Shown here: in pieces, positions 179 through 29,550 of the stretch
Position numbering within the stretch: position 1 is the first letter of the stretch
Layout of the letters: each line of letters opens with the position of its first letter
Origin: a virus
Taxonomy: Duplodnaviria; Caudoviricetes
Virus record (IMG/VR): IMGVR_UViG_3300030012_001538
Coordinates: 1 to 29,819 of that record
Strand: one strand, 5' to 3'
DNA length: 29,819 bases
Notes under the pieces: generated by a model
Seen by the model: only the letters and a program-made list of their open reading frames with translations
Databases searched by the model: none
What the model was told of the DNA's origin: nothing
Program-made: the position numbers and the translations under genes

Positions 179-562
179 CTTTTTATCGTTTTCGTATTCC
201 TTGTAAACACTTCTTAAACGATCCACCATATCACGAACACAACTTGAGCAACTACTTGGTGTGCTTCTTTTATTAAACACACGGTTGTATATTTCTCTTA
301 AGTGTTGTTGTTCGGTTGGGTTTACTGTATTACGTTCTTTGCTAAACCAATCTTTTAACGTTTCGTATTCGTCTTCGTGTAGGCATTGGATGTTTGGGTT
401 GTAAGAAAATAGTTTGTTTAATTTCTTTCTTCTTTCTTCACACCCACAATCCTCACCAGCTACAAACTTAACAAGCTTATCTATGCCAGTTGCTTTAGTT
501 ACTTTTGCGATTGAGTCACCAAGACCTTCGCTTTTCTTTTTTGTTGTTTTCTTTTTTGCCAT
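176..562 (-). CDS. Hypothetical protein with CxC and CxxC (possible Zn-binding)
   Basis: 128 aa ORF with DCGC and CSSC motifs and an A-rich upstream region. Confidence 0.8.
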   Translation of the reverse strand: MAKKKTTKKKSEGLGDSIAKVTKATGIDKLVKFVAGEDCGCEERRKKLNKLFSYNPNIQCLHEDEYETLKDWFSKERNTVNPTEQQHLREIYNRVFNKRSTPSSCSSCVRDMVDRLRSVYKEYENDKK

Positions 563-564
563 TT

Positions 565-681
565 TTATTTAGTTTTAAATTTAAAGATTGCATAACTTAA
601 TAAGATGAATATTAAAGTTACGCTAAAGATATTTAGATGTGGTTCTCCACATAGTCCTAAAAGGTGTTTTATTGATTCCAT
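565..681 (-). CDS. Small putative membrane protein (38 aa), not in the ORF track
   Basis: Hand translation MESIKHLLGLCGEPHLNIFSVTLIFILLSYAIFKFKTK*. It fills the gap between neighbours and has one hydrophobic helix followed by a basic tail. Confidence 0.65.
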   Translation of the reverse strand: MESIKHLLGLCGEPHLNIFSVTLIFILLSYAIFKFKTK

Positions 682-697
682 AGTTTGATTCGTGTTT

Positions 698-1321
698 TTA
701 ACATATTCTTAATTGTGCAGTATGGTTTTCTAACCTTTTAATTGCTGCATCGTAATACTCTTTGTCTAACTCACAAGCAGTTAAGTCATAACCTAAATTG
801 TGACAAGCTATTGCAATACTTCCACTTCCTAAATGCGTGTCAAGTATTTTATCTCCCTCCTTTGCATAATTCATTAAAAGCCATTCATAAAGTTTAACTG
901 GTTTTTGTGTTGGATGTATTCTTACATTGTCAGCACCTAAAAACCCTTTATATCTTATTGGTGCAATTCTCAAAACTTTATTAAAACTGCACCAAGCAAG
1001 TTCTCCGTCTGAAAAATCGCAATCTCCGTTTATACCTTTATCCCAAAAAATATAACATTTACTTGGTCTTAATTTATCAGTAAAATAATTACCTCCCCAA
1101 ATAATTTGGTTTTTAGAAACTCTTTGTAATTCTTTAAAATAATTAACATTAGGTGTTTTATTATCCCACTTTTTACCCTTTTTATATTTCTTATTTTTAC
1201 CACTTCCCATTGTCATTTCTGAAGCGTTTATACCATAAGGAGGGTCTACAATAGCCAAATCAAAATAATTATCTTCATACCTTGACATTAACTCCATATT
1301 ATCTTCGTTAGTTATTTTCAT
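698..1321 (-). CDS. DNA amino-methyltransferase (N6-adenine/N4-cytosine, beta class)
   Basis: Catalytic DPPY near the N-terminus, HPTQKP motif, and SAM-binding motif ILDTHLGSGS near the C-terminus. Confidence 0.93.
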   Translation of the reverse strand: MKITNEDNMELMSRYEDNYFDLAIVDPPYGINASEMTMGSGKNKKYKKGKKWDNKTPNVNYFKELQRVSKNQIIWGGNYFTDKLRPSKCYIFWDKGINGDCDFSDGELAWCSFNKVLRIAPIRYKGFLGADNVRIHPTQKPVKLYEWLLMNYAKEGDKILDTHLGSGSIAIACHNLGYDLTACELDKEYYDAAIKRLENHTAQLRIC

Positions 1322-1322
1322 A

Positions 1323-1481
1323 CTAATTTAATGCTACTTCAAATAATTCTAAAAAGTCTTCTTCATCTAATTGCTTTTGAAAGCAAAATGTTTTAATTGC
1401 TTCTTCACGGCTTTTAGCTTTTATTAAACTAATTGCTTCCTGGTTAATGTCGTTCTTCATATAGAAGTAATATGTTTTCAT
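1323..1481 (-). CDS. Hypothetical protein (52 aa; start revised to MKTYYF)
   Basis: ATG at 1481 overlaps the upstream TGA stop (ATGA coupling). Confidence 0.65.
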   Translation of the reverse strand: MKTYYFYMKNDINQEAISLIKAKSREEAIKTFCFQKQLDEEDFLELFEVALN

Positions 1482-2002
1482 TTTTCTATTTTTATTCTTT
1501 CGTATTCCGTGTTTCTGAAGTCTTGCCAATCTTCACCAACTGCTTCTTTGATCCGTGTTCTACAATTCTTTAATGTTTGCCAAATACTTTTAACACTTAT
1601 TTTGCTTTCTTTAGATAGTTGACGTATGCTTTTACCACTTGATGTATAAACTTCAAATAGCATTTTATCGTACCAATGCCAAGTTTCTATTTCGTCTTGT
1701 ATCTTTTGGTATATTTTGCCATAAGCTATTTCTTTTTCCATTTCGTCTTTATATACTAAATTAATATCTTCCGTGTTTATCTTGTGTTTTTCTTTGTGTA
1801 GTAAGTAAGTGTTTCTTATTGCCCAGTAAATATATATTTTGTTAACTATTCCGTCTTTTAAAAGCTTTTGCAAGTTAGCGTGGTTTATAAGTCGTAAATA
1901 CATTTCTTGAACTATGTCTTCAGCAAATGAACCAGCACCAAGTTTTTTTGCTATCGCAACGTGTTCTTTGTGGTCTTTTGTTATTTGCTTTAACCAATCC
2001 AT
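1478..2002 (-). CDS. Phage sigma-70/ECF-like sigma factor
   Basis: Region-2-like AEDIVQEMYLRL and region-4 HTH SIRQLSKESKISVKSIWQTLKNCRTRIKE. The 174 aa size is typical of ECF sigmas. Confidence 0.8.
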   Translation of the reverse strand: MDWLKQITKDHKEHVAIAKKLGAGSFAEDIVQEMYLRLINHANLQKLLKDGIVNKIYIYWAIRNTYLLHKEKHKINTEDINLVYKDEMEKEIAYGKIYQKIQDEIETWHWYDKMLFEVYTSSGKSIRQLSKESKISVKSIWQTLKNCRTRIKEAVGEDWQDFRNTEYERIKIEK

Positions 2003-2007
2003 TTATC

Positions 2008-2015: not shown

Positions 2016-2045
2016 AAAAAAAAGCAGCACAAATTAATGCGCTGC
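2015..2045 (-). terminator. Intrinsic terminator after the SSB-like gene
   Basis: Minus strand GCAGCGCA-TTAATT-TGTGCTGC followed by a T9 run. Confidence 0.8.
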
Positions 2046-2777: not shown

Positions 2778-3460
2778 TGTTCAACGTTTATAGTTAGCTT
2801 TTCTTTTAGTTCTTCGTAGTATTCACGACATTCTTCTATTCGTGTTTTTATAGCTTGGATCACTTCCTTATCATAGTCTACACGAAACAACTTTACACGG
2901 TTTTCTTTAGGTATGTGACTAAATTGGTGTTTGCTTTGTACATAGTCCCGAACTTCTAAACACTCATCTATCTTTTGTTGCTTCCAATGTTCTCGCCGTA
3001 TTTCGTCTTCTACTATTTGTTGTGGTGTGTCAACAAGGCAATAAGCAATGTAAGCTTTGCGTTTTCCAGTTAGCCACATATAACCTTGCACTTGATAGAA
3101 GTAGTCTTTGTTTGGTAGTTTATCTTCAAACATCGGAAACGTTGAAGCATCCCAACTACTTTTTATATCTACTACGACGTCGGTTATTATATCGGGTTCA
3201 CCAGTAATATATTTGTTTGTAAACCTTTCTTCGTTTTTATACATAAAGCCAAAGTCTAAAACTTCATTGCATAATGAAATACTATGTTGTTCTACTTCGT
3301 TACCCTTGTCGGTGTACCTTGACCAAAATTCGTTTTTTATTCCAAATTCGTCTTCGAGTAGTGTTTGCTTTACGTAGCTTTTTGCCGTTTGACTTAACAC
3401 TTCTTTTTTAGAACGTGCGTTAGTCATTATTTTCCCAAGTGATGAACATCTTACTAACAT
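2774..3460 (-). CDS. YqaJ/lambda-exonuclease family recombination exonuclease
   Basis: RCSSLG, KGNEVE, GEPD...DIKSS and YQVQGYMWLTG motifs; adjacent to ERF. Confidence 0.85.
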   Translation of the reverse strand: MLVRCSSLGKIMTNARSKKEVLSQTAKSYVKQTLLEDEFGIKNEFWSRYTDKGNEVEQHSISLCNEVLDFGFMYKNEERFTNKYITGEPDIITDVVVDIKSSWDASTFPMFEDKLPNKDYFYQVQGYMWLTGKRKAYIAYCLVDTPQQIVEDEIRREHWKQQKIDECLEVRDYVQSKHQFSHIPKENRVKLFRVDYDKEVIQAIKTRIEECREYYEELKEKLTINVEQ

Positions 3461-4061: not shown

Positions 4062-4592
4062 TTAAGAATTATTTTCAATTTCTTTACATTTTTGTTTATA
4101 AAGTTTTATAATATCTTTTAGTTCGTCTTTTTCCCACTTCTTCATTTTCTTGCTTTGCTTTTCTAAATCTTCAAATTCCTTTAAACCAATTTTTGTTAGT
4201 AGCCTTATGTGGTATTGATACAAGTTGCCGTGTTCCCATTGGTTACAATAAACGCATTGTGCGTGAATGTTTCTTACATCAAAACGAACTGAACCGTGAC
4301 CACCAGCACTAAAGAAGTGACCAGCGTCAAACTTACCAGTTAAAGGTGCATCGCAACTTATACAATTTTTATCTTTATCACGTAGCCTTACAAATTTGTT
4401 TACCCACTTTTGTGCTTCTTTTACATAGTCGCTTGTGGTTCGTAGTTCTTCTTTCATTCGTCTTTTTTTTGCTTTCCATTGTACTTGTTTGGCTTTCTTG
4501 ATCCATACATCCATACATTCTTTTTTTGTACAATACTTTTGGTTAAAGTGTATTGCTTCAAACTTTTCTTTGCAATGTTTACAACGTGGCAT
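4062..4592 (-). CDS. ninG: NinG/Rap-family recombination endonuclease
   Basis: N-terminal CxxC, VRLRD, CISC, DAGHF and NIHAQCVYCN motifs. Confidence 0.9.
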   Translation of the reverse strand: MPRCKHCKEKFEAIHFNQKYCTKKECMDVWIKKAKQVQWKAKKRRMKEELRTTSDYVKEAQKWVNKFVRLRDKDKNCISCDAPLTGKFDAGHFFSAGGHGSVRFDVRNIHAQCVYCNQWEHGNLYQYHIRLLTKIGLKEFEDLEKQSKKMKKWEKDELKDIIKLYKQKCKEIENNS

Positions 4593-5907: not shown

Positions 5908-6788
5908 TATAATCGTGTTTGTGTTGTTTTAAATCTATAATCTTTTAAGTTGTCTACACCTTGTGTTGTAAATCCTAAACCATTGTTAAAATTAAATAAT
6001 AATGGCATATTTAATTCAGTTAGTTGCCCACCAGTTTCTTTGTCTTTTATCTTTTCAATGCTTACCATCGTTTCATATTTCATTGTTTGATGTGCTACTA
6101 AACGGTGTACAATAAATAAATCGTCACATCTATTTAAAAAGCTTTTACCACCTTCAATATGTGCTTTCATTGGTGCTTTTAAGTGACCTTTCCATTCGTG
6201 GTTTTCGGGGTAAACATTTCCAGCACGACCACTTTCACTTGTTGGATGGCTTGATACATACAACGTTTTTTTCGTGTTGTTGCAAAATTGTCTTGCACCG
6301 TTTAAAAATTCATAGTTGCCTTCGTATGTCATCTTTCTATCTAAACCCGTAAATGGATCAATAAAACAAACGTCAGCATCTTCGCTTTCAAATATTAAAA
6401 ATAGTTCTTCGGGTTTGTAAAGTTTTCTATTATCTACAAACGTAAAAAATTGGCTTAAAAAATTATATGCACTTCTTATAGTTTGTAAAGGTATTTTTTT
6501 AAAATGTTCACCAACATACATTTGTATTAAATCACGCATTATTTGACCACTTGAATTTTCACCAGACCAAATACAAAAAGTTTTGTTGTTTATAATTGCG
6601 TGTGAAAGCATATAATAAGTGAAGAAGAAAGTTTTACCTACGTTGTCGTGTCCAAGTAAGATATTTAACTGTCCGTGTTTTAAACGTAAATAGTTATCCA
6701 AAACATTTCCAATGCCTAAACCAGCTTTTATTTTACCGTTTCGGTAGTTTTCTAAATAGGTTAATTCACTACCTTTATTTATTAGCAT
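5907..6788 (-). CDS. DnaB-like (SF4/RecA-fold) replicative helicase
   Basis: Walker A GHDNVGKT, SGEN, Walker B CFIDPF and SSHP motifs; follows the initiator gene. Confidence 0.8.
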   Translation of the reverse strand: MLINKGSELTYLENYRNGKIKAGLGIGNVLDNYLRLKHGQLNILLGHDNVGKTFFFTYYMLSHAIINNKTFCIWSGENSSGQIMRDLIQMYVGEHFKKIPLQTIRSAYNFLSQFFTFVDNRKLYKPEELFLIFESEDADVCFIDPFTGLDRKMTYEGNYEFLNGARQFCNNTKKTLYVSSHPTSESGRAGNVYPENHEWKGHLKAPMKAHIEGGKSFLNRCDDLFIVHRLVAHQTMKYETMVSIEKIKDKETGGQLTELNMPLLFNFNNGLGFTTQGVDNLKDYRFKTTQTRL

Positions 6789-7795: not shown

Positions 7796-8086
7796 CTATT
7801 TCGTTTTTTTGTGGGATGGAGACTTTATTTTATAAATTGCGTGTCTATTATCGATTTGCTGGTTTCGTATCTTATCGAACCACGCACTTGCAGCAGATTC
7901 CAAATTTTGCTTTGTGGAAGTGTTTGGTTCTCCAGTTGATAAAAGTTCTATTTTTTTAATTAAACTTTTGTGGCGATCCAACTTAATAATTGCTTCTTCT
8001 TTTGTTTCGGCTTTTATTATGCTATAAACTTTTCGCCACGTTAAAGTGTGGTCACGTTCTTTATGCGTTATTTTGTATGTATTCAT
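7796..8086 (-). CDS. Hypothetical protein (start revised to MNTYKI)
   Basis: ATG at 8086 is coupled (ATGA) to the stop of the C5 MTase. Confidence 0.7.
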   Translation of the reverse strand: MNTYKITHKERDHTLTWRKVYSIIKAETKEEAIIKLDRHKSLIKKIELLSTGEPNTSTKQNLESAASAWFDKIRNQQIDNRHAIYKIKSPSHKKTK

Positions 8087-9090
8087 AATTTTAATTTTGC
8101 TATAATTTTTTCTAAACATTTTACAACGATACTATTTCCAGCTTGTTTGTAAGCTTGGCTATCTGAACACGACCAAGTAAACGTTTCTGGAAAGTCCATT
8201 AGTCTGAAACATTCTCTTGGTGTAAGTCTTCGAATTGTATCTTGTTTTAAAGTTGCTTGGTTACTAATGCATTCTAAAGATTGTGCTATTTGTTTTCCTA
8301 CACGACCACGTCTTGTTTCACTATGTAGCCTTGTAAAGTTTATGCTATCGCCTTCAGTAGCTACTTCGTAACCTTTACTATTAGCACTTTTAATTTTTAT
8401 GCTTTCACTATTATTTGTGTTTAATAGCATTTCATTTACTTTTTTTTCATCTAAAAAATACTTTTTATCTACTTCCTTTTCTAATACGTCTTTAAGCTTT
8501 GTTGTTAAAGGTTCGTCTTTTAGAAATTGAAAAACATTGTCTTTATCGTCTTTAATTCCTACTATAAAAACACGTTCTCTATTTTGTGGAACATTTAAGT
8601 TTTTAGAATTTATAACTTTATAATAGATGTGATAAGGAACTGCATTTTCATCTGCAAATAAAACTGGTAAACCATTGATGCTTTTACCACCTAAAAAATT
8701 CAACCATTCTTGAAAAGTCTTGCCGTTGTCGTGTGATAATAAACCCCTAACATTTTCAAATATAAAAAAGCGTGGTTTGTTCTTTTGTATAAATTCGTGA
8801 CTATTAAAAAATAATATTCCACGTTTATCTTCTTTTCCAAGTCTACTTCCAGCTTGACTAAAAGCTTGACAAGGTGGCGAAGTCATATACAAGTCTAATG
8901 GATCTTGTGGTATTTTCCTTTCGTAAACGTCAGTAGGATAGTAAGATGGTTCGCCATAGTTTTCTATGTATGTTTGTCTTGCATACTTATCCATATCACA
9001 AGCAAATATTGTTTCGTGTTTTATTCCTAACCTAATTAAAGCTTGGTCAAAAGCACCTACACCGCTAAAGTCACTACCTACCTTTATCAT
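8083..9090 (-). CDS. DNA (cytosine-5)-methyltransferase
   Basis: Motif I FSGVG, IV PPCQAFS, VI ENV, VIII QNRER, IX RRLTPRECFRL, X YKQAGNS. Confidence 0.95.
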   Translation of the reverse strand: MIKVGSDFSGVGAFDQALIRLGIKHETIFACDMDKYARQTYIENYGEPSYYPTDVYERKIPQDPLDLYMTSPPCQAFSQAGSRLGKEDKRGILFFNSHEFIQKNKPRFFIFENVRGLLSHDNGKTFQEWLNFLGGKSINGLPVLFADENAVPYHIYYKVINSKNLNVPQNRERVFIVGIKDDKDNVFQFLKDEPLTTKLKDVLEKEVDKKYFLDEKKVNEMLLNTNNSESIKIKSANSKGYEVATEGDSINFTRLHSETRRGRVGKQIAQSLECISNQATLKQDTIRRLTPRECFRLMDFPETFTWSCSDSQAYKQAGNSIVVKCLEKIIAKLKL

Positions 9091-9287: not shown

Positions 9288-9438
9288 TGCTTACTTCTTT
9301 TAAATAGTTCAAATATTTTATGTAGTGATCCGTGTTAAAATTACCTTTTTCGGTTCGTGTTTTTCTATTCCAGTAAAACTCGTATTTATAGATGTTTTTA
9401 AGACTTTCTATGTGGTCTGTCCAATTTATTTTTTTCAT
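9277..9438 (-). CDS. Hypothetical protein (start revised to MKKINW)
   Basis: ATG at 9438, 10 nt after the previous stop. Confidence 0.6.
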   Translation of the reverse strand: MKKINWTDHIESLKNIYKYEFYWNRKTRTEKGNFNTDHYIKYLNYLKEVSNEK

Positions 9439-9984: not shown

Positions 9985-10835
9985 CTATCTACTAAAGCAA
10001 ATGTCTTTTTTATTTTATTTATTTGTTTTCTAGAAATATTTATTGATAAAATTCGACCACCTAAAACCTTTGCTGGTGCGCCACGTTCAATATGCCAACC
10101 ACCGTAACCATCTACATACTCATCTTTATACGTTCCAGTTATCATTGAATGTATGTATTTGTGTTTTACTTCGCAAGTATATCCGTTTGAATGTAATACT
10201 TCTTTAGCATCCGTTCTTGCACTATTTTCGTGTATATGTCCCATTGTAAAAATGTCGGCTTCGTAGTTAGTTAATGCTCTTGTCAAGTTAATAGCACCTT
10301 TAGTTACTACACCACCACCACCATTACCGTGAAAATACTTTAAACGTAAGCTTTTTTTATTATTCTTAAAATTAAAATAAAACCACAACCAACCACCATA
10401 GCCACCAGTAAGCACATTTGATCCACATTTATAGTTTAATATATCTACAAACCTTTGTAAAACATCCGTTTCTTGGTGCTTAATTATAGCTGTTTCGTGG
10501 TTGCCATATGATATTACTTTAATAATACTTGCATACGGTGTAAACCATTCTACTGCCGTATTTACTATACTATCAAAATAATTATTAAATGCGTGTTCTG
10601 GTCGTACATCACTTTTGTTCCCTCGTCTATCGCCTTTGCCTTGCATTAAGCAAAACATATCACCATTAATAAAAACGGGTATATTATGCTCTAAACAATA
10701 GTCTAAATGGCTTTTAAGAAGTTCACGGTTACATTTGGGGTTATCCCAATGTAAATCGCTTAAAACGGCTAATTTAAAGTTTTTATTATCAAAAGTAAAT
10801 TTAATGATGTTTCTCGTAATTCTTTCAGTCTTCAT
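9963..10835 (-). CDS. Calcineurin-like metallophosphoesterase
   Basis: SDLH, NGD, GNHE, HG and GHIH metal-binding motifs in canonical order. Confidence 0.88.
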   Translation of the reverse strand: MKTERITRNIIKFTFDNKNFKLAVLSDLHWDNPKCNRELLKSHLDYCLEHNIPVFINGDMFCLMQGKGDRRGNKSDVRPEHAFNNYFDSIVNTAVEWFTPYASIIKVISYGNHETAIIKHQETDVLQRFVDILNYKCGSNVLTGGYGGWLWFYFNFKNNKKSLRLKYFHGNGGGGVVTKGAINLTRALTNYEADIFTMGHIHENSARTDAKEVLHSNGYTCEVKHKYIHSMITGTYKDEYVDGYGGWHIERGAPAKVLGGRILSINISRKQINKIKKTFALVDSCQFPII

Positions 10836-11180: not shown

Positions 11181-11765
11181 TTAAAATTCATTTATTAAGC
11201 AATAGCTAAAATAGCTTTGTTTTGCTTCTTTAAATAGTTTTATTACTTCACGATAAACAAGGTTGTCTGAAGCCACTTGGCAACCAGCACTCCAATAGTC
11301 AATTTCTTCTCGTTTAATATCTGCACCTTTTCGATAAGTTGATCCGTGAAAGTTTAAACCAATTTTACCCGTGTAAAGCTTTCCTATTTCTTCGCTTTTA
11401 CCGTTTAAATTTCCATCACGATAATAAGGCATATCTTTAGCTTGTCTTAATGCTTCCATCTTGCCACGATGTAAACCAAACTTCCAACAGTCATAGTGCC
11501 AATAGTCAGATTTAAGAACGGCAACACCTTCTTTATTATATTTTTTAAAGCCACCTTCTAAATAAACTTTACCTGGATTTGTAGTTGCTCTTAAAACTGC
11601 GTGGAACATACTACCAAAGTAAACATATATCTTGTCATCAAAAACGTTTGTAATGTCTTCTTTTGACCTTACACCAAGCATCCAATACTCGTTAGGTATG
11701 CCTTTAAAGTTTTCTATTTCTTGTACTTTGTCAAGTAGTTCTTTATCCGTGTATTTCCTTACCAT
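11181..11765 (-). CDS. Putative endolysin with a YkuD/L,D-transpeptidase-like catalytic motif
   Basis: IGLNFHGS-x13-WSAGCQV resembles the YkuD H...SxGC dyad. It lies directly downstream of small membrane proteins. Confidence 0.55.
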   Translation of the reverse strand: MVRKYTDKELLDKVQEIENFKGIPNEYWMLGVRSKEDITNVFDDKIYVYFGSMFHAVLRATTNPGKVYLEGGFKKYNKEGVAVLKSDYWHYDCWKFGLHRGKMEALRQAKDMPYYRDGNLNGKSEEIGKLYTGKIGLNFHGSTYRKGADIKREEIDYWSAGCQVASDNLVYREVIKLFKEAKQSYFSYCLINEF

Positions 11766-16947: not shown

Positions 16948-17532
16948 TTATGAAGTTACAATTGTACAGTTACCAGTACCACCAGCACCGTTTTGTAGTA
17001 AAAGCTTCAATTCAGTTTCGTTAGTTGCATTGATAAAGTTAGCTGGTAATTCTTCCATTGCAGTAAATGTTAAAGAATATCCGTTAAAGTCACCAAGTGC
17101 AGAACCACTTGAAATTGTACCAGCAGTTACATCACATCCTTGATCCAAGCCCATTAAAAAGAATTGGTCACCTCTTGCGTGTATAATTATTCTTGGTCTT
17201 CCGTAAGAAATTAATTTTATATTCTTGGTACTTTTAACATCTTGTCTTTTAAGTTGAACGGTCAACGATTGCTCGAAAAAAGTCGTTCCATTTTCCCTAC
17301 TACTATTAATAGTTTGCTCAAATGAATTTGCACCTTTAAGTTCAAACTTATAAATACTAAATGATAAACCATCACTTTGTACTGCTACGATTTGGTCAGT
17401 ATTATCTGATGTTCCATATTGGTTTAAACTTGGGAAGTCTAAATCGCCATAGTTCACAAGATAGATTGCGTGTAATCCCGAAACTGCATCTTTGCATTGC
17501 TCCGTTCTTCCACCTATTATATCACACGACAT
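16948..17532 (-). CDS. Putative major tail (tube) protein
   Basis: 194 aa, begins MSCDI..GR...CKD.VSG, contains SRENGTTFFEQSLT and GYSLTFTA.E. Biased codon usage; lies downstream of the MCP. Confidence 0.65.
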   Translation of the reverse strand: MSCDIIGGRTEQCKDAVSGLHAIYLVNYGDLDFPSLNQYGTSDNTDQIVAVQSDGLSFSIYKFELKGANSFEQTINSSRENGTTFFEQSLTVQLKRQDVKSTKNIKLISYGRPRIIIHARGDQFFLMGLDQGCDVTAGTISSGSALGDFNGYSLTFTAMEELPANFINATNETELKLLLQNGAGGTGNCTIVTS

Positions 17533-17593: not shown

Positions 17594-18517
17594 TTATGCG
17601 TAGATAACTACGTCAGAATTGATTCCCATTGCAACCGCAGCAGTAAATCTCATAATAACTCTAACGTTTTGAGATCCATCTAATTCAGCCATATCTAAAA
17701 CTCTAACTTCGTTAGTGTCGTTTAATAGACCAGTTCCAAAGAACATATTAGATTTTTGTGCAGCCATCATTGAAGATGCTGGTAAACCTTGAGCAACAAC
17801 TACTGGAATACCATCGAAAGAAAGACCACCGTTATTAAACCAAGTTGTTCCTTGTGCGTTAACACCGTTAGCACCTAAACCGTTAGCACCGAAACCACCG
17901 AGACTTCGGATATAAGCGCGGGCTACGTTAGGCGCAACATAGATAAATACGTCTTCTTTTCCGTAAACTGCTTGTGGAATAGCGTCAACAACTTTTCCCA
18001 TTTCGTCAATTACGTTTGCAGCAGTCACACCAGTACCAGTTACGGCAACACATCCCGAACCACCAGCAGTAGCTAAATAGTAAAAACCGTCAAATTCTCC
18101 AGCGTTTGCAGTTTGACCAGCCCAAATGTTAGATTCGATTTTAGAAGCAACTTTTGCAGCAGTATGTGCAATAACAAAGTCAGAAAGACTTGGTGCTAAT
18201 TTATCAAATGCAGAATAACCCATTTGTTCAGCTTCCCAAGAATTAACTAAATCTTTTTTGCAGATATCCACATTTACTTGGAATTCTTCTGGTTGAATAA
18301 TTTTTTCTGAAAGTGTTAATGTTCCACTTGCAGTATAATCACAAGTTGCGTTTGCAACGATGTCATTGTATGATCCAACTTGTAAAACACTTTTGTATTT
18401 TACGTTTGGCATTACAGTTATTAGACCTTTGTCTAAAGTTTGTGCTGAAAGTAAAGCAGCAGAAATATACTTCCCACTAAATTCACCAGCATACGTTGAG
18501 GTTAAAGATACACCCAT
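17594..18517 (-). CDS. Major capsid protein
   Basis: 307 aa following the scaffold gene, with strongly biased codons and YAGEF.GKYI, NIW.G and C-terminal VRVIMRFTA motifs. Confidence 0.8.
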   Translation of the reverse strand: MGVSLTSTYAGEFSGKYISAALLSAQTLDKGLITVMPNVKYKSVLQVGSYNDIVANATCDYTASGTLTLSEKIIQPEEFQVNVDICKKDLVNSWEAEQMGYSAFDKLAPSLSDFVIAHTAAKVASKIESNIWAGQTANAGEFDGFYYLATAGGSGCVAVTGTGVTAANVIDEMGKVVDAIPQAVYGKEDVFIYVAPNVARAYIRSLGGFGANGLGANGVNAQGTTWFNNGGLSFDGIPVVVAQGLPASSMMAAQKSNMFFGTGLLNDTNEVRVLDMAELDGSQNVRVIMRFTAAVAMGINSDVVIYA

Positions 18518-19835: not shown

Positions 19836-21024
19836 AGTCTTCAATCATTTTTTTAAGTTCTTCAACTATTTGCTTGTCACGTTCTTGCTTTGTAGCTTCT
19901 AACTTACCAAGTTGTTTAAGTTTGCTTTCTGACCAACGTAGTGCAGCTAAACCACCCCATAGTAAATAAGATATATTACCACAGTCGTTTGTGTCAGCGT
20001 CATCGTAGTAAGTTTTAGCACGGCTTAAATAAGAATACATTCTTTGGATCGTGGCTACTGTTAAAGGGCGACCAGCAGCTAAATCAGCACCTCTATTTTT
20101 TCCAGTAAGTGTTGCACACTTATTGTTGTTTTTTTCGTTTAGTTCTATACCACGTTTTGCATTGTTGCTTACTGCTTGTGGATAGTCGCTATAACTTTCT
20201 AATTGTGTAGAATTTTTTATAGGCACACAGTTAGGTACTTTACGACCACCTTTTATTTTAAAGCCAATCATTTCATAACCACTTGTGCAAGGTTTTTTTA
20301 AATCTATGGTTGGTATTTCTTCGCTTAAAGAATGTTGTTCGCAAGGCATAAACCAAGTTTTACCTTCGAAGTCGTGTTCGTGAAAACCTTCGCAACCTAC
20401 TTCTTTTGCAACCTTTAATGCTTTTTCTTTTGTACTATATGCCGTTCGGTCATCTATTATTGCAAGTTCATCGTCTATTACAACGGATTTAAATTCTTGC
20501 TTACTTGCTTCAACTTTTTCTGCAAAATAACCTTCTATTGAAAAACCTTTTATTTCACCTTCTTTTACTTTTTTCCATACCTCATCGTTGTCAACTTTCA
20601 TAGATATCATCCAAGTACCTTCTGGAACGTTAAATTCGTATAAAGCACTTTTATCTTTTTTAGTGTCTTCTACGATCCAACTTTCAACTACGGTCATACC
20701 ATCAATTTTTTTTGCGTGTTCTAATGTTGCGTTGCTTTGGTTTGACTTCTTTAAAAATAGTTGACTTGCTTTTCTTATTGTTTCTTTAGAAAAATAAATG
20801 TAGTATTCTTCATTAGTCTTTTCGTTGCGTCGGTATATTTGTTTTTTAGGTACTAATGCAGCACCCATTAAAATACGCTTTTCTTCGTTTATCGTTTTTA
20901 ATTGTATTTCGTGTTTTTTTAGTGCTATCCAATTTTCTTCTATTGCTGGATTTTCAACTACACTTACGGCATCAACACCACTATTAATGTCATCTTCGTT
21001 TAAAACAAGTTCAATGATTTTCAT
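19780..21024 (-). CDS. XkdF-like prohead protease with appended C-terminal modules
   Basis: AVSVVENPAIE, KRILMGAALVP, TLEH, VESWI, GTW and GFSIEG motifs in the N-terminal 170 aa. Confidence 0.8.
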   Translation of the reverse strand: MKIIELVLNEDDINSGVDAVSVVENPAIEENWIALKKHEIQLKTINEEKRILMGAALVPKKQIYRRNEKTNEEYYIYFSKETIRKASQLFLKKSNQSNATLEHAKKIDGMTVVESWIVEDTKKDKSALYEFNVPEGTWMISMKVDNDEVWKKVKEGEIKGFSIEGYFAEKVEASKQEFKSVVIDDELAIIDDRTAYSTKEKALKVAKEVGCEGFHEHDFEGKTWFMPCEQHSLSEEIPTIDLKKPCTSGYEMIGFKIKGGRKVPNCVPIKNSTQLESYSDYPQAVSNNAKRGIELNEKNNNKCATLTGKNRGADLAAGRPLTVATIQRMYSYLSRAKTYYDDADTNDCGNISYLLWGGLAALRWSESKLKQLGKLEATKQERDKQIVEELKKMIEDYEKKYKKKRKKKKKRNTK

Positions 21025-23123: not shown

Positions 23124-25490
23124 TTACGGTTGTTGTATTATTATCGAAGTGTCATTAGTTGCACCGTTGCAATAAGTGTGTGTAACATTTAGTGTTATAC
23201 TTTGTGGTGCAGATTCTTCGGTTTCTATTCTAAAAAAGTTTTCCGTGTTTACATAGTTTGATCCATCTTCGGTAACTATTAATTCTTGCGTGTTACTATT
23301 TGCTGGAACACAAACTTCTACTATTTGACTACTTGTAATAGTGCTTGGTGTAATAGTTACACCACCAGTTGTAGTGCTTATTGTAGCAGAACAAACACCG
23401 TTTAATAAATTAACTGGTACGTCTACACAATTAGATGTTGGCTTACTATGAATAATTGTTAACGGTGAAAGTGGTCTAAAGTCTAAAAGTAAAGTCATAT
23501 CAACATCGCCACTTGTGATATTTGACTTCATTTCGTTTATGACATATCTTTTATCACGAATTATTACACGGTCATTTAATTTTAAATTAGTTAACATTGA
23601 AATAGGTAATTGTGTTTTTACCTTTATCAATCTATTTTGCAAGTCATATAGATTTTGTAAATAATTAAAATAATATGTTGCGTATAAAGTGTCAGTTACT
23701 GGTGTTAATAAAAACGTACTACGGTCAGCATTAAAATTTAATGTGTAGTTTGTAATTCCGTTTACTTGTAGGTCTTGACCAAATGGCATATAATCGCTAA
23801 CCGTAACTTCTGCCGTTCCGTTATAGAACTTAAAATTCGTGCTTTGCTTGTCGTACATATACATTAAACAAGGTTTAGGAACATAAGAAGCTAAATTATC
23901 ATCTAAAGCATAAGCTACTTGCGTGGTTGTTCCAGTAAACTTTTGTCCCATTAAGTTTTCAAATGGTAGTTGAACGGTAAATTCACCACCATCGTATGTA
24001 AATGATTGTTCCGTGTTTCCGTATTCACGATAAAACAAAGCTTTGAATTGTTGGTTTAATACGCTTTTGCTTTCTTGATATTTAAAAGATATTCTTTTAT
24101 ACAATGGCACACGGTCAACATCAATGCTTTTAACGTCGGTGTGTTTTGTTATGTCGTATAAATCGCCAAGTGTATACCACGTCTCTAAAGTTTCTATTTC
24201 GTAAGTGTCTGCAACCGTACCAAAACAAGTTAGGTTAAACATTTTTAAAACACCACTAAAAAAGTCAGCTACTTTTATTTCGGGAACTAATGATCCAAGA
24301 CTTGAATTTCCCGTTAATGTTTGTGTTGCACCCGTTATAGTAAATTCATCTACGGGTACGATGGTAGTTCCAACCGTTGCTTCCCAAAAACAATTTGTTG
24401 TAGTGTCTATGTCAATTTGGTTTGCTGCTCTCATTTCAAGAACTATGCTTTCGTCTAAACCTGGTGCGTTTTGGTCATATACTATTTGATGCGTTGCCGT
24501 TCCTTGTCCTTGAATAGTATGCGAAAATACACCGTTTCTATGTACGTCAATATAGTAGTCAGTTGCAGCATCACTTGGTATTACTGTCGTGTTTATTACA
24601 AACCTATAATGTTGACCACCTACTACGTTAGAATAATTGTATGTTATTGTGTTTGTTGTTAAGTCAACACCACTATTAACTGGTGCAGTTCCAGCAGCAT
24701 ACACTACACTTGCAAAGTCAACTTCTTTAGCACCCGTTATAAATGTATTAGATTTCGTGTTTTTCGCCCAAAGAAAACATTTCTTAAATCTTTCATCGTC
24801 TAAAAAAGTACCCGTAAAAGTTATGCCATAATGCGTAGCAATTACTTCAAATAGTTTTTTAATTTTTACTGCTGGAAAAAGTTCGTTAAATAATATTCGA
24901 CCAGCCGATGCAGTTATGTCATTACTACTTGGACTACCACCATAATTCCAATTTCTATCGCTACTTATTAATGGGTATCTTACATCGTAGTCGGTTGTGT
25001 CGTCGGTTATTCTATTGTAAACTTCTGAACCCGTATAAGTGTGGTCTAAAGAACTTAAATCAACATCGCTTAACATATCTTCGCCAAACTTATCTTTTAA
25101 GCTTGTGATGTCACCATAAAAAGTTAGCGTATAGCTTTCGGGTTTACCATCTTTTAAGTTTGCTTTTTCAAGTTGTATTTTACCCGTTCGAAAAGGTGTT
25201 AGGTTTATGTCAAGTTGTGCGTCTTTTCGTATGTTTACATTGAACGTAAATTGTGTTGGTGAAGTTGGTGTTATGTTAGTTGGGTTATATCCGTAAACAT
25301 CACTATTGTAAAAGTGTTGAAATACTTTATTATTTGTTTTGGTTGCTGGAACGGTAAACGATTGACTGAAGTCACTATAAATCTTGCTAATATCTTGGAT
25401 GTTTTGAACACTTGAATTTACTTGTATTTGTTCGTCATCAAACAAGTCAAGCTTTACCCCTTCAACATATATTTGTACGCTTCTTTTCAT
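23124..25490 (-). CDS. Large tail tip/hub protein
   Basis: 788 aa with N-terminal LDLF.DE.I....SVQNI.DISK..SDFSQSFTVPA; beta/Thr-rich; tail module. Confidence 0.7.
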   Translation of the reverse strand: MKRSVQIYVEGVKLDLFDDEQIQVNSSVQNIQDISKIYSDFSQSFTVPATKTNNKVFQHFYNSDVYGYNPTNITPTSPTQFTFNVNIRKDAQLDINLTPFRTGKIQLEKANLKDGKPESYTLTFYGDITSLKDKFGEDMLSDVDLSSLDHTYTGSEVYNRITDDTTDYDVRYPLISSDRNWNYGGSPSSNDITASAGRILFNELFPAVKIKKLFEVIATHYGITFTGTFLDDERFKKCFLWAKNTKSNTFITGAKEVDFASVVYAAGTAPVNSGVDLTTNTITYNYSNVVGGQHYRFVINTTVIPSDAATDYYIDVHRNGVFSHTIQGQGTATHQIVYDQNAPGLDESIVLEMRAANQIDIDTTTNCFWEATVGTTIVPVDEFTITGATQTLTGNSSLGSLVPEIKVADFFSGVLKMFNLTCFGTVADTYEIETLETWYTLGDLYDITKHTDVKSIDVDRVPLYKRISFKYQESKSVLNQQFKALFYREYGNTEQSFTYDGGEFTVQLPFENLMGQKFTGTTTQVAYALDDNLASYVPKPCLMYMYDKQSTNFKFYNGTAEVTVSDYMPFGQDLQVNGITNYTLNFNADRSTFLLTPVTDTLYATYYFNYLQNLYDLQNRLIKVKTQLPISMLTNLKLNDRVIIRDKRYVINEMKSNITSGDVDMTLLLDFRPLSPLTIIHSKPTSNCVDVPVNLLNGVCSATISTTTGGVTITPSTITSSQIVEVCVPANSNTQELIVTEDGSNYVNTENFFRIETEESAPQSITLNVTHTYCNGATNDTSIIIQQP

Positions 25491-26627
25491 TTATATTACG
25501 CTATTAATCATATCAAAACCATACTTAAATGTGATGTTATAATTTATGTTGCCTTGTGCATTTACACCTTTTAGTTTTTCTATGCTTTTAGTGTCTACGG
25601 TTACGGGTAAACTATCCACAAGAACTTTTTCACTTAACATTATTTGTTGTATTGTTTCGGAATAACTTGGTGCAACGATTCCAGTATTGCAAGTAATTGT
25701 TTCTTGACCGTTATGGTTAAATGCTTGTCTTTGTCCTTCAAGTGTAGAATAGCTTAATGAATTACTTTGCATTAAATTGTAAACGCTTTCTTTCGTGTTT
25801 ATGTTATTTTTTGATGCTTTAAAAAACCATTCACGTTGCCAATACCCCATTTGGTTGACAAAGTCTACTAAAATTGGTGTATATTTTGGTTCGCATTTTG
25901 GTTTAAATATCCAAGTTCCGTAAAGTGTCGGTGATCCAGAACCAAGATTATCCCAAACTTCCAATTTATTTCCGTCAGCATAATAGTCATACCATACCGT
26001 AGGAACGTCGTATAAATCTGTAGATGCAAAAGGGTTGCTAATAACTTGCGTTGCACCACTTACTAAATTTGTATATTTTAAATCTACTAAAACCCCAGCA
26101 CCTAAAAAACCGATTAATCCAGCACGTTGTGATTCGTTTGTCGCTGGTGTATGTGTACTTTGATAATGATAGTAATATGTGCCTTGTGGTAAAGATGCCG
26201 TTTGGTCAGTTGTAAATTCTAAACTTGTTAGTTGTGGGTTAGCACCTTCCGAATAATATCCGTATCCATCCATACAAAAATATGTAGTAGTATCTAACAA
26301 AGTATAGTTACCCGAAGTTGTTTCTTTGTATCGCTTAACATCAAGCTTAACCATTTGGTTGTAATTGTTAGCAGCAACTCCAGTAGAAACTCCCGAACCA
26401 ATAGCCGTTTGTCTTGTAGTAAATTTTAAATATTCTCTTGTGTAAGGTGCAACATCGTAATACATCTTCAAATTGTTAGATGCTGGTATAAGCTTCTGAA
26501 TAGTGTATTGTGGGTTTGTTGGTACACTTGTACCCGAATAGTAATAGAACAGTTCAAGCTTTGAACCTACAACCGAAGATTCGTCTACTTCTATAATGTA
26601 TGGTGAACGTGCAAATATTTTATTCAT
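25491..26627 (-). CDS. Minor tail protein (distal-tail-like)
   Basis: 378 aa, upstream of the hub protein; positional inference. Confidence 0.6.
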   Translation of the reverse strand: MNKIFARSPYIIEVDESSVVGSKLELFYYYSGTSVPTNPQYTIQKLIPASNNLKMYYDVAPYTREYLKFTTRQTAIGSGVSTGVAANNYNQMVKLDVKRYKETTSGNYTLLDTTTYFCMDGYGYYSEGANPQLTSLEFTTDQTASLPQGTYYYHYQSTHTPATNESQRAGLIGFLGAGVLVDLKYTNLVSGATQVISNPFASTDLYDVPTVWYDYYADGNKLEVWDNLGSGSPTLYGTWIFKPKCEPKYTPILVDFVNQMGYWQREWFFKASKNNINTKESVYNLMQSNSLSYSTLEGQRQAFNHNGQETITCNTGIVAPSYSETIQQIMLSEKVLVDSLPVTVDTKSIEKLKGVNAQGNINYNITFKYGFDMINSVI

Positions 26628-27151
26628 TATTTAGTTTTTAAGTTTTCTTCTATTATTGAAACAAGTAAATTTTCCATATCTAAACCGTACTTTTCTATTA
26701 GTTCGTTTGGTAGTTTTTCAAAAGCAGATTCAAATGGTTTGGTAAAAAACATACTTGGTTTTATTCCGTGATGGAAAACGCTTCTTGCAATTAAAAAGTT
26801 TAACGACTTTCGTTTTAATAACCTACCTTTTTTATCTCGTGGTGCTAAACCTTTTCTTATCGTCCACTTGTCAAATACTTTGCTTGGTGGCATCTTACTT
26901 TTATAGCTAAAGTTAGAAAGTGACTTACCACTTTTAACACCCCTTACACCTTGATCCTGAAACCATCCATAATTATCTAATTGAAAAAATACACGAATAG
27001 AATTTGGCATAACTTTTACTTTACCTTTTATACTGTCGCTTAAATTACCACTTGCGTTTTTATTTTGTTTTTGCAAATTATCTTTTGCAGCTTCAACTAC
27101 TCGTTGTTCAAACTCTTGCAATGCTTCCAATAAAAAGTTAGTTTCAGACAT
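26627..27151 (-). CDS. Basic neck/tail-completion protein (HK97 gp10-like)
   Basis: SGNLSDSI, YG.FQDQGV.G and IARSVFHHGIKPSMFFTKPF pattern. Confidence 0.6.
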   Translation of the reverse strand: MSETNFLLEALQEFEQRVVEAAKDNLQKQNKNASGNLSDSIKGKVKVMPNSIRVFFQLDNYGWFQDQGVRGVKSGKSLSNFSYKSKMPPSKVFDKWTIRKGLAPRDKKGRLLKRKSLNFLIARSVFHHGIKPSMFFTKPFESAFEKLPNELIEKYGLDMENLLVSIIEENLKTK

Positions 27152-27599
27152 CGCAAACAGTCATAACGTTAGGTGTGTTTATATTTACGGTCATAGTCCA
27201 TCCAGCTAATTTTGAAGAAAAGCGTTCTACAAATATTTCTAAATTTGGTGTGCCGTCTACTTGGTAATTGTCATCGTATAAATTACCACGTCTTAACTTT
27301 TCGTAAAGCCTATTAAGGATGCTGATTTGAGTATTTAAAACGTCTTGTTCGTTGTTATTTCCTAAAAATTTGTCCGTTGTTTCATCTTTTGATTCGTCAA
27401 CCACATCCATACTTAAAATGCTAATATTGTATTGGATCACATTATCTACAAACGTTGCACTATTTACTATTATGTGGCATAGTGGGAATATAGTTTGCTT
27501 TGATAAGTCAACGTCGAAGATATCACCACTTGAAACGGTGTTTACTAACGCATCGTTGTTTAGTTCGGTTTGTAGCTTGGTTAGAATTTCGTAGTACAT
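27144..27599 (-). CDS. Putative tail terminator/completion protein
   Basis: 151 aa acidic protein with FPLCHI and LAGW motifs; position next to the neck gene. Confidence 0.55.
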   Translation of the reverse strand: MYYEILTKLQTELNNDALVNTVSSGDIFDVDLSKQTIFPLCHIIVNSATFVDNVIQYNISILSMDVVDESKDETTDKFLGNNNEQDVLNTQISILNRLYEKLRRGNLYDDNYQVDGTPNLEIFVERFSSKLAGWTMTVNINTPNVMTVCDV

Positions 27600-27877
27600 T
27601 ATTTTATTTTATTTAGTTGTCGCTGCATTTCACTATGTTCAATATCTCTTTTTTGCTTTTCAAAAGTAAGCCAGGTAAAGCAGTCGTGTAATGGTAGTTT
27701 GGTGACATTTCGAAAGTTTTCAAGTTTTCCTTCAGCGATTGCATATATGCTTTGATACCATCCCCATTGTTTACCAAATTGATTTCTTGCTGAAAAGTCG
27801 CCATCATTTCCTTGCTCGTCATCTGCACTTCTAAATATTGAATTGTACTGTTCAGCAATTCGCTTGTTAAAACGCAA
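27599..27877 (-). CDS. -1 frame extension (gpT-like) of the tail assembly chaperone, probably reached by frameshift
   Basis: No ATG start. It begins at the T9 slippery run and ends with TAATG coupling to the next gene; WGWYQSIYAIA motif. Confidence 0.65.
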   Translation of the reverse strand: MRFNKRIAEQYNSIFRSADDEQGNDGDFSARNQFGKQWGWYQSIYAIAEGKLENFRNVTKLPLHDCFTWLTFEKQKRDIEHSEMQRQLNKIK

Positions 27878-28365
27878 AAAAAAACTTTAGCAGCAAGTGC
27901 TACACCAAGTGGTGCAAATTTCATTACTTCGGCATAGTTAGCAGAACTTTCGTATTCTTCTATTAAGTATTTATCTTTCTTCTTTTGAATTACTGGTCGA
28001 TATAAAACCGCCATTGCTTTGTGTAGTGTGTCAATAGACTTTAAGTTTGTTTCTAAATCTATGTATTCACCAAAAGTGATATCTTCTAAATTTGGAATAA
28101 AACCAAACTCATAGTCGTTTAGTGTAAATGTTCTTTCGAACTTTGGTTGTTCTTTAAATACTTTTGATAAGTGTATTGTGATGTCTTGAACATCTTGCCA
28201 CTTTACTTGCAGAACATCACGTAGTCGTAAACCACAAAATATTTCTACCATCTTTTGACATAAAAATTCTTCGTCATTCGTCTTTTCGTAGGTTGCCATA
28301 AACTTTTGATAGCTACCTAATGGTATTTCGTTTATGTCGGTTGGCAGTAAAATTTCAGCTTCCAT
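27613..28365 (-). CDS. Putative tail assembly chaperone (gpG-like)
   Basis: 250 aa containing GTT TTT TTT TGC (slippery T TTT TTT) at about 27876-27885. Confidence 0.65.
   Translation of the reverse strand: MEAEILLPTDINEIPLGSYQKFMATYEKTNDEEFLCQKMVEIFCGLRLRDVLQVKWQDVQDITIHLSKVFKEQPKFERTFTLNDYEFGFIPNLEDITFGEYIDLETNLKSIDTLHKAMAVLYRPVIQKKKDKYLIEEYESSANYAEVMKFAPLGVALAAKVFFCVLTSELLNSTIQYLEVQMTSKEMMATFQQEINLVNNGDGIKAYMQSLKENLKTFEMSPNYHYTTALPGLLLKSKKEILNIVKCSDN
27876..27885 (-). other. Programmed -1 ribosomal frameshift slippery site
   Basis: G-TTTTTTTTT on the minus strand, an in-frame X XXY YYZ heptamer. The -1 frame is open for 92 codons. Confidence 0.65.
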
Positions 28366-28368
28366 ATA

Positions 28369-28394
28369 TATATAACTATTTTTTGTGTTTTTGT
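28369..28394 (-). promoter_or_regulatory. Phage late promoter ACAA-N12-TAGTTATATA-N3-ATG
   Basis: The 10-mer is at 28369-28378, 3 nt before the ATG at 28365. Confidence 0.75.
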
Positions 28395-28395
28395 A

Positions 28396-29550
28396 TTACC
28401 TAATGTGGTAAGTTCCATAATTCTTATTGCTTAAGTTTTCCATTTCGTGATATCTTAAAGCATCTATTAAATGGTCTTGCCCACCTTTAGGTTTGTTTAA
28501 TTGTTTACCAGTCTTGTCCGTGTCCCAAACATAACCCCTTAATTCTTTTATTAAATTTAAGCTTGAGGATGTAACTAAATATTCTTGGTTTTGCATAAGT
28601 TGTATTCCGAATAAAATGCTATCCTTGCCTTTAGTACAACCTTTTATTTGATAACCAAGCCTTCTAATTTCTTCTATACTTTTTGGTTCAGCAGAGTCGG
28701 CTATAACTAATTCGTGTTTTGGTAGCTTCTTTGCTATCTCGGCATTCACTAATTTATTTTGGTAGCATATTTCGTTTATTATTCTTTTGCCGTTCCATAA
28801 GTAAACCTCAACTATTGCCGTTGGATCATTACTATAACCAAAGTCTAAACCGTGACCAATTAATTTAGCATCGCTTGGGACTTCGTCTATTTGCTTCCAA
28901 TTGTCAAACACTACACCTTGCAAGTTTCCTATCTCACCAAGTCCATAAACTGCCCACCAGTTTTTCCAGTATGCAGATGTCTTTGCTTTTTCCTTTGCCT
29001 TTTCTATTTCGAATATTATGTTGTCATCAAGTGCTTCGTTGTCTAAATAGTTAAGCTTTAGAAATTGTGCGTTGCTATCTTGCTTTAGTTCGTGTGCCCA
29101 AAATTCATTAGATGGGTTAAAGTCTAAATATACTTCGTCTTTTGTTCGTATAGCAAGTTCATTATACATTTCAAATGTTACGTTGTTACATTCGTTTATA
29201 TAAAGTATATCACGTCTTGCACCACGTAACCTGGAACTATCGTCAGCAGAAAAGAACTCAATAAAACTTCCATTAGTAAATTGATATTTCAACAAACTCC
29301 TGTTAAAAAGTTGTTCACGGTATCGGTTTAAACCTTTAAGTAACTTTATGCAGTCACGGATGCAACCACGTCGCAAGTGTGGTATTGATTCACTTACTAC
29401 GCTTATTTCAAGGTTTGGTAATTTAATTGCTTTGTCTATTAACAATATTAAAATAGAAATAGTCTTACCAGCAGATGTGCCGCCTTGAATTATTTTGATT
29501 CGTTTTTCTAACCTACTTATCTTGTTGACTGCCGTCGTTCTTTGAAACAT
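28396..29550 (-). CDS. terL: Terminase large subunit (PBSX-like)
   Basis: Walker A QGGTSAGKT, Walker B LYINE, DFNP, nuclease GLDFG..NDP, ADSAEP and DHLIDALRY motifs. Confidence 0.95.
   Translation of the reverse strand: MFQRTTAVNKISRLEKRIKIIQGGTSAGKTISILILLIDKAIKLPNLEISVVSESIPHLRRGCIRDCIKLLKGLNRYREQLFNRSLLKYQFTNGSFIEFFSADDSSRLRGARRDILYINECNNVTFEMYNELAIRTKDEVYLDFNPSNEFWAHELKQDSNAQFLKLNYLDNEALDDNIIFEIEKAKEKAKTSAYWKNWWAVYGLGEIGNLQGVVFDNWKQIDEVPSDAKLIGHGLDFGYSNDPTAIVEVYLWNGKRIINEICYQNKLVNAEIAKKLPKHELVIADSAEPKSIEEIRRLGYQIKGCTKGKDSILFGIQLMQNQEYLVTSSSLNLIKELRGYVWDTDKTGKQLNKPKGGQDHLIDALRYHEMENLSNKNYGTYHIR

Follow-up and report, generated by a model that had tools for sequence, protein, structure and literature searches.

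Why would a phage genome discard every GATC except those preceded by a G? The question is raised by a tailed-phage sequence of 29,819 bp, IMG/VR record IMGVR_UViG_3300030012_001538 (hereafter the window, which is the entire virus record), with a G+C content of 32.5% and every long open reading frame (ORF) on the minus strand. An earlier note on this DNA, made from the letters alone, had counted 25 GATC sites, all of them GGATC or GATCC and none HGATCD (no G before and no C after) or GGATCC. A computed scan agrees exactly: each of the 25 sites is preceded by G on exactly one strand, with 18 reading GATCC and seven reading GGATC on the plus strand, and the positions listed in the note were correct to within 2 nt. 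The explanation towards which we lean, if only slightly, is that a Sau3AI-like host enzyme purged GATC from the genome and that a cytosine-5 (C5) DNA methylase of the phage shields GGATC through a single target-recognition module, called module B below.

The GGATC-only pattern is real and very strong. From mononucleotide composition, the window should hold 59.6 HGATCD, 23.2 one-sided GGATC and 2.2 GGATCC, which agrees with the note's estimate that about 30% of GATCs would have a flanking G or C. Its remark that GGATC is near its expected frequency while dozens of HGATCD are absent also stands (25 against 23.2, and 0 against 59.6). We then ran the codon-preserving shuffle that it had proposed. 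Across 500 within-gene synonymous-codon shuffles, HGATCD occurred 27.1 ± 4.1 times (minimum 13) against 0 observed, and one-sided GGATC 12.0 ± 3.0 times (maximum 24) against 25 observed. When words are counted on both strands, GGATC (25) is undepleted next to GGATA (29), GGATG (28) and GGATT (22); HGATA, HGATG and HGATT reach 215, 167 and 129, and the 25 HGATC are the GGATC sites seen from the opposite strand. All sites lie within ORFs. Since they occupy all three reading frames (11, 8 and 6) and varied codon pairs, codon usage fails to account for it, and we rejected codon or amino-acid constraint as the cause of the pattern.

The bases around GGATC are biased as well. T is the 5' neighbor at 20 of the 25 sites (P = 2e-4 against a background of 0.43), which is the TGGATC count given in the earlier note, and the 3' neighbor is A in 18 (background 0.31, P = 3.5e-5), otherwise G or T and never C. 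Both biases are weaker in two other genomes with the pattern, G001 and L194 (see below). GGATC lies on the gene-sense strand at 18 of 25 sites in the window, 17 of 21 in G001, 9 of 12 in L163 and 10 of 15 in L194, above the roughly 56 to 58% predicted from G/C skew by a rough ratio of base counts; window and G001 sites are partly common and not independent.

Relatives, site turnover and spacing

The pattern is found well beyond the window (L numbers denote compared viral, prophage or genome loci; G001 and G002, the latter being L029, are relative genomes). All 21 GATC sites of G001 are GGATC, with no HGATCD, as are all 18 sites of L001 to L004, and L160 to L165, L172 and L174 are also GGATC-only. 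The same is true of 15 out of 15 sites in L194, a marine phage whose terminase is only 27% identical to that of the window, and a similar lean is seen in prophage-like loci of metagenome-assembled genomes (MAGs) of Cellulosilyticum (L261), an uncultured member of the Eubacteriales (L267) and Gemella (L325). A mirror pattern exists too. L302 and L303, from an uncultured Clostridia MAG, have 1 GGATC against 17 expected and 28 to 30 HGATCD, which is at expectation, and none of the 11 GATC sites of L203 is GGATC, as if an enzyme specific for GGATC were the only one being avoided.

Individual sites turn over rapidly. Only 15 of the 24 window sites that align with G001 are common to both genomes, against 79% of all 5-mers intact. 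In relatives 91 to 93% identical to the window, 1 of 12 (L004), 0 of 9 (L029) and 0 of 6 (L166) window sites are still intact, whereas GGATD words taken as controls survive intact at 20 of 30, 15 of 27 and 9 of 15 positions, respectively. Informally, we observed a few site losses accompanied by gains 0.3 to 1 kb away when comparing the window with its relatives. This turnover, together with the wholesale loss in sister lineages, shows that the sites are neither individually conserved nor essential.

The retained sites are also spaced far more evenly than chance would have it. The 24 gaps in the window are over-dispersed, with a coefficient of variation (CV) of 0.47, a minimum of 397 bp, a maximum of 2586 bp and a mean of 1192 bp, much as the earlier note had estimated (about every 1.2 kb, largest gap about 2.6 kb). 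Under uniform placement, P(CV) is at most 5e-5 and P(min) is 1e-4, and when 25 of the 104 GGATN positions in the window were picked at random, the observed values were reached 0 times in 20,000 trials. Twelve loci with the pattern were taken for spacing, and the eight with at least five sites were tested. Spacing is regular in G001 (21 sites, CV 0.49, P = 6e-4, minimum gap 379), in the unrelated phage L194 (CV 0.46, P = 0.001, minimum gap 254), in L163 (CV 0.44, P = 0.003) and in L206 (P = 0.03); regularity is individually not significant in L002, L003, L162 and L165. In 16 control loci with undepleted GATC, CV was 0.78 to 1.32, with P < 0.05 in one locus for CV and in one for minimum gap. Orientation makes little difference, mean gaps in the window (averaged by hand) being similar for sites in the same (about 1150 bp) and in opposite orientation (about 1240 bp).

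Regular spacing turned out to be a general companion of GATC depletion. Among 131 dereplicated loci of at least 6 kb and with at least six GATC sites each, spacing tends to be more regular the more GATC is depleted, irrespective of the flanking bases (Spearman rho 0.40, P = 2e-6); P(CV) is below 0.05 in 21 of 73 loci at an observed-to-expected ratio of 0.5 or less, against 2 of 29 at 0.8 or more. The effect includes loci in which most residual sites are HGATCD, namely L381 (16 sites, CV 0.44, minimum gap 500), L359 (8 sites, CV 0.27, minimum gap 1036), L270 and L170. Since random thinning is unable to yield such spacing, it must be pairs of sites that determine removal, and the likeliest reading is that a two-site enzyme left this spacing behind, not that the sites have a function.

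A recognition module that goes with GGATC retention

The earlier note had named two phage methylases as candidate shields, a DPPY (beta-class N6/N4) enzyme and a C5 enzyme. On comparing their sequences across phages, we favor the C5 methylase. Its PF00145 match covers residues 7 to 334 and all C5 motifs are present: PPCQ (72), ENV (112), QNRER (169), RRLTPRE (287) and GNS (318). The closest solved structure is M.HhaI (E 8.5e-39), with an alignment limited to the catalytic core. The enzymes of the window and L160 have a single recognition module, and relatives with 97 to 99% identical cores add one or two. The variable regions in the window, L160 to L166 and L174 measure 106, 136, 145, 166, 173 or 185 aa; the window has the shortest, with one module, and close relatives (136 to 185 aa) have the same module plus inserts. 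An alignment of 18 module B sequences (A1) has 21 invariant columns, among them TRRGRVGK.

Searches of viral contigs and species-representative genomes place module B in an estimated 1,500 viral stretches and in prophage-like regions of many phyla. No restriction enzyme adjoins it in the contexts inspected (85 ORFs, 24 of 79 bacterial loci), which are all phage- or mobile-element-like. Two named phages with related methylases are uninformative: Streptococcus phage MM1 (43% identical) has 73 GATC in all contexts, and Riemerella phage CRP5 (41% identical) has three. Orphan and multispecific phage C5 methyltransferases are known, for example in Bacillus phages SPR, phi3T and rho11. The window enzyme is like these in being phage-borne without a partner nuclease and in combining a conserved core with exchangeable modules (one to three in relatives). 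It is unlike them in having a single module and in its predicted target, the asymmetric 5-mer GGATC, as read from the genome footprint.

We examined the association between module and pattern in 384 loci, which were dereplicated at 85% identity into 187 clusters and represented by one member per cluster and module state. The window's own cluster was excluded, and elements entered the comparison if at least 10 HGATCD were expected and at most 15% of expectation observed; keeping GGATC was defined as at least 30% of expectation. Fourteen of the 22 elements with module B keep GGATC, with pooled counts of 115 GGATC against 250 expected (0.46) and 37 HGATCD against 582 (0.06); these keepers include the marine phage L194 and prophage-like regions of Firmicutes MAGs. 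In contrast, none of the 28 elements without the module does so (5 GGATC against 285 expected, 0.02), giving a Fisher P of 3.4e-7. A first-pass subset had yielded 10 of 16 with the module and 0 of 29 without. Correlating the pattern with each methylase in related contigs, as the earlier note had suggested, associates retention with module B and not with the DPPY methylase.

The DPPY methylase is an intact beta-class enzyme, its DPPY and GSGS motifs being visible in the translation. Its N- and C-terminal ends are conserved and near-identical among phages otherwise 91 to 97% identical, but the central region is exchanged: the window, G001/L138, G002 and L174 each have their own version, which looks like cassette-like swapping of specificity. 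The version in L174 is of the SPPY type, a motif characteristic of N4-cytosine enzymes. Three different central regions thus occur in the window, G001 and L174, which are about 93% identical at the nucleotide level and all keep GGATC. L086 and L087, with copies 84 and 80% identical to the window's and the same central version, have 1 GGATC each against 7.3 and 7.9 expected, and some 40 loci with 63 to 68% identical copies have no GATC at all. We therefore rejected this enzyme as the shield.

A proposed two-site selecting enzyme and its rivals

What kind of enzyme might have done the purging? Sau3AI brings two sites together by looping the DNA, the loops averaging 423 bp (PMC1474071). The product of the Sau3A methylase is 5-methylcytosine, and Staphylococcus phage K shed GATC to evade Sau3A (PMC6532042). 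Since removal depends on pairs of sites and Sau3AI bridges two, we infer that the GATC purger was Sau3AI-like. Suitable genes occur among 301 sampled genomes of a Flavobacteriaceae-level family, which contains a Tenacibaculum MAG with module B. Sau3AI-like ORFs (about 470 aa, with the two MutH-like domains of the Sau3AI architecture) are present in 10 of them, and a C5 methylase adjoins four of the six inspected. The other two (L396 and L398) adjoin a conserved ORF of 394 aa that matches nothing in Pfam. DpnII-family genes are found in 7 of the 301 genomes, the three with clear flanks all adjoining the usual adenine methylases, and RE_AlwI-family genes in 5.

The proposed course of events is as follows. 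A GATC-cutting host enzyme would have removed all GATC outside GGATC, and the C5 methylase is predicted to mark, through its single module, one cytosine of GGATC/GATCC. As GGATC is asymmetric, only one strand of the GATC core would be methylated. The selecting enzyme would be blocked by 5-methylcytosine in GATC and would bridge two sites via a DNA loop, so that one-strand protection may suffice for an isolated site and fail for two sites within looping distance, which would impose a minimum spacing. Sister lineages that lost GGATC may meet a further enzyme insensitive to 5-methylcytosine, for example of the DpnII or AlwI type. The earlier note had posited a GATC-directed defense combined with a narrower GGATC shield; the comparative data all fit this core, and the interpretation is partly supported.

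Several observations weigh against this explanation. With a hard core set at the minimum gap observed, the leftover regularity is borderline (P = 0.05, 0.03 and 0.06), so the main rule is that no pair of sites lies within about 250 to 450 bp. That rule is not universal, module-bearing GGATC keepers L363 and L343 having gaps as short as 57 and 33 bp. Eight of the 22 module-bearing purged elements (L180, L184, L351 and five more) keep little or no GGATC, and the lineage of L004 and L166, which are 99% identical to each other over 5 kb and share about 93% identity with the window, has 2 GGATC in about 16 kb even though its methylase contains module B together with extra modules. Conversely, L206 keeps GGATC and GGATCC, with no HGATCD, despite a different recognition region. 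Given these counterexamples, module B goes with retention but is not strictly required for it, nor does it suffice. The elements without the module are mostly partial contigs from searches for marine phages, and the two groups differ in composition; where a fragment misses a methylase gene, the effect would only be to make the association weaker. In a search of solved structures (M.HhaI and M.HaeIII, core only), the module B recognition region aligned with no characterized enzyme, and hhalign against the methylases adjoining Sau3AI-like genes found no profile similarity (probability 0.6%). Because of that value, a weak BLAST match (E 0.002, against six sequences) was discarded as a clue to specificity. 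Finally, the sampled Flavobacteriaceae tell us no more than that the family has suitable enzymes, and the phage's own host is a predicted one.

A wider form of the explanation is more tentative, and we hold it to be possible though rather doubtful: module B would be a widespread orphan module that hemimethylates GGATC, and the spacing of retained GATC would be the imprint of the looping distance of two-site enzymes. Evasion of two-site (Type IIE) enzymes through the distance between sites has reportedly been described for EcoRII and the sparse sites of T3 and T7 (said to be in Kruger et al. 1995). The window resembles EcoRII/T3/T7 and Sau3AI looping in that distant sites resist bridging enzymes, and its exclusion distance of 380 to 450 bp is near the 423-bp loop (PMC1474071). 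It differs from the few refractory sites of T3 and T7 in being a statistical footprint on 25 sites and 131 phage and prophage loci, to which a predicted methyl shield is added. The spacing might alternatively stem from modification-dependent enzymes for which two methylated sites are required, McrBC and SauUSI (PMC3874153) being examples, but this would leave the spacing of unshielded sites in other phages unexplained.

Could there be no shield at all? The host enzyme itself might be effectively HGATCD-specific, cutting GATC preceded by G on either strand poorly or never. The exemption is indeed complete and one-sided, a single G flank being enough at 25 of 25 sites; the pattern switches among sister lineages 91 to 93% identical, as a change of host would cause, and the L004/L166 lineage purged GGATC though it carries the methylase module. 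Sites invisible to the enzyme should, however, lie randomly, and those observed are over-dispersed, while in elements from unrelated hosts retention follows a phage-borne module (14 of 22 with it, 0 of 28 without). We know of no HGATCD-specific enzyme, which also counts against this reading, and we regard it as unlikely.

Protection might instead come from the host, if AlwI-type systems were so common there that progeny phage DNA always bore their marks at GGATC. AlwI, EacI and GmeI methylases consist of two fused domains that make N6-methyladenine (m6A) in GG(m6A)TC and G(m6A)TCC (PMC3526280), the AlwI site being protected by this methylation (PMC4081073), and such marks would also block GATC enzymes of the DpnII or MboI type, a family that, like RE_AlwI, is represented among the sampled genomes (7 and 5 of 301). 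These systems have in common with the window the identical word GGATC/GATCC. They have one m6A domain per strand, unlike the window, whose candidate is a single C5 enzyme predicted to act on one strand; no two fused N6-adenine domains of the AlwI type occur in the window, where the sole adenine-type enzyme is a single 207-aa domain. A cellular parallel exists in Sulfolobus acidocaldarius, in which all 1,311 GATC lie in AGATCC or GGATCC and m6A is found at GGATCY (PMC5809426); this resembles the window in having only G-flanked GATC and context-specific methylation. It is a cellular archaeal genome with adenine methylation and a pyrimidine next, unlike the window, where GGATC is followed by A, G or T and never by C. 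A host methylase leaves unexplained why retention follows the phage C5 module in unrelated hosts. Nearly every host cell would need a GGATC methylase, and RE_AlwI is rare in the sample. We regard this possibility as quite unlikely.

The earlier note had also raised the idea that the sites are retained because they do something themselves, for example as regular marks or nick sites for replication, recombination or packaging. The highly regular spacing, with its borderline surplus under the hard-core null, and a GGATC count twice the codon-shuffle expectation are what it would predict. This idea is not supported and we consider it highly improbable: turnover exceeds that of random 5-mers even against G001 at about 93% identity, sister lineages lost nearly all sites, GGATC is as abundant as GGATA, GGATG and GGATT, residual non-GGATC sites in other depleted phages are regularly spaced too, and Pfam and PHROGs profile searches revealed no recognizable site-specific nickase in the window. 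Least credible of all is that the intact DPPY methylase shields GGATC, for although the GGATC methylases on record are adenine enzymes (PMC3526280), its swapped central regions among keepers and its copies in GGATC-purged phages speak strongly against it.

Returning to the Sau3AI-like purger and the C5 shield, the window is like known cases of restriction-site avoidance in phages (phage K and Sau3A, PMC6532042; survey by Rusinov et al. 2018, PMC6286503) in that a short palindrome is selected away. Its avoidance is conditional, unlike that of the phage K type, with GGATC spared at neutral density and with a minimum mutual distance. In the openly accessible literature (the supplement of the RIMS-seq2 survey, PMC11954522, excepted), we found no paper tying GGATC-only retention to a C5 module; the mentions of GGATC in PMC11042277, PMC10734518 and PMC6700114 are primers or unrelated motifs. 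For a general relation between GATC depletion and spacing, the same literature yielded no paper, only surveys of site avoidance plus a cited 1995 review on distance. Conditional avoidance makes raw phage sequence a testable prediction of a methylase target, here GGATC for this C5 module, and also predicts the type of enzyme evaded, here two-site and sensitive to 5-methylcytosine. The module B family is large, so one methylome experiment would annotate many members, and, judging by the link between depletion and spacing over 131 elements, evading restriction through site distance appears to be common, though so far unquantified. If both the module target and the spacing imprint are true, the phage genome records its own methyl shield together with the mechanics of the enzyme it evaded, and GGATC specificity, described so far only for two-domain adenine enzymes, would occur in a C5 enzyme.

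Gene content and other purged words

Pfam and PHROGs profile searches show a small tailed-phage gene set in the window (Table 1). The sister genome G001, which spans 30,765 bp and has a completeness rating of 100%, is circularly permuted but otherwise collinear with the window and about 93% identical to it, which indicates that the window is a near full genome. Flavobacteriia are the hosts of the closest named phages: the terminase shows 49% identity to those of Flavobacterium psychrophilum phages and the capsid protein 30% to that of Nonlabens phages. We infer a Flavobacteriia-type host from these similarities. No named phage was matched when 9 kb of the window were compared by megablast.

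Table 1. Genes and GGATC sites of the window; the fourth column gives the plus-strand position at which GATC starts.
Feature	Position	Strand	GATC start	Basis or remark
DPPY (beta-class N6/N4) DNA methyltransferase, 207 aa	698..1321	-		PF01555 E 1.2e-17
PAPS-reductase-like protein	5044-5907	-		PHROG 424; no Pfam match at E < 0.001
C5 cytosine DNA methyltransferase, 335 aa	8083..9090	-		PF00145 E 3.5e-70; predicted GGATC shield
Module B, single C5-methylase target-recognition module, residues 226-283	8242..8415	-		modular variable region; tracks GGATC retention
Concanavalin-like lectin-domain protein, 277 aa	12863-13696	-		Laminin_G_3 E 2e-28; tail-related PHROG match
Large terminase	28396-29550	-		Pfam/PHROGs
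Head protease/scaffold, SSB, exonuclease, Erf, NinG, helicase	window	-		Pfam/PHROGs
GGATC site (GATCC on +)	220..224	-	220	scan
GGATC site	1550..1554	-	1550	scan
GGATC site	2857..2861	+	2858	scan
GGATC site	4500..4504	-	4500	scan
GGATC site	6355..6359	+	6356	scan
GGATC site	7975..7979	-	7975	scan
GGATC site, within C5 methylase gene	8900..8904	+	8901	scan
GGATC site, window-specific; GTTCG in 5/5 aligned relatives	9327..9331	-	9327	scan and alignment
GGATC site	10420..10424	-	10420	scan
GGATC site	11341..11345	-	11341	scan
GGATC site	12740..12744	-	12740	scan
GGATC site	14879..14883	+	14880	scan
GGATC site	15797..15801	-	15797	scan
GGATC site, 397 bp from preceding site (shortest gap)	16194..16198	-	16194	scan
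GGATC site	17142..17146	-	17142	scan
GGATC site	17673..17677	-	17673	scan
GGATC site	18372..18376	-	18372	scan
GGATC site	20046..20050	+	20047	scan
GGATC site	20674..20678	-	20674	scan
GGATC site, after longest gap (2586 bp)	23260..23264	-	23260	scan
GGATC site	24292..24296	-	24292	scan
GGATC site	25933..25937	-	25933	scan
GGATC site	26953..26957	-	26953	scan
GGATC site	27434..27438	+	27435	scan
GGATC site	28823..28827	+	28824	scan

Two further genes deserve mention. The lectin-domain protein is only 48% identical in G001, while adjoining genes are 95 to 99% identical, and it is probably a receptor-binding tail component. PAPS_reduct genes also adjoin module B methylases in bacterial loci L251, L259, L264 and L323; we rejected the PAPS-reductase-like gene of the window as a modification factor, as G001 is without it yet keeps the GGATC pattern.

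GATC is not the only word purged from the window. CATG (0 against 85 expected), CTAG (2 against 85), CCGG and GGCC (0 against 20 each) are depleted, as are CGCG (1) and GCGC (4). Both-strand counts are 0 for CACTG/CAGTG (22 expected under a Markov model), 0 for CTATAG (12.6) and 3 for CTAAG/CTTAG (45). With so many short palindromes missing, the genome is under heavy general restriction pressure, and the combination of purged words varies among relatives. TCGA, with 30 occurrences against 85 expected, may represent a second conditional avoidance: the depletion is partial, and the share of TCGA that reads TCGAA/TTCGA is 26 of 30 for the window (P = 4e-4), 35 of 46 for G001 and 13 of 14 for G002, a bias independent of the version of the DPPY methylase.

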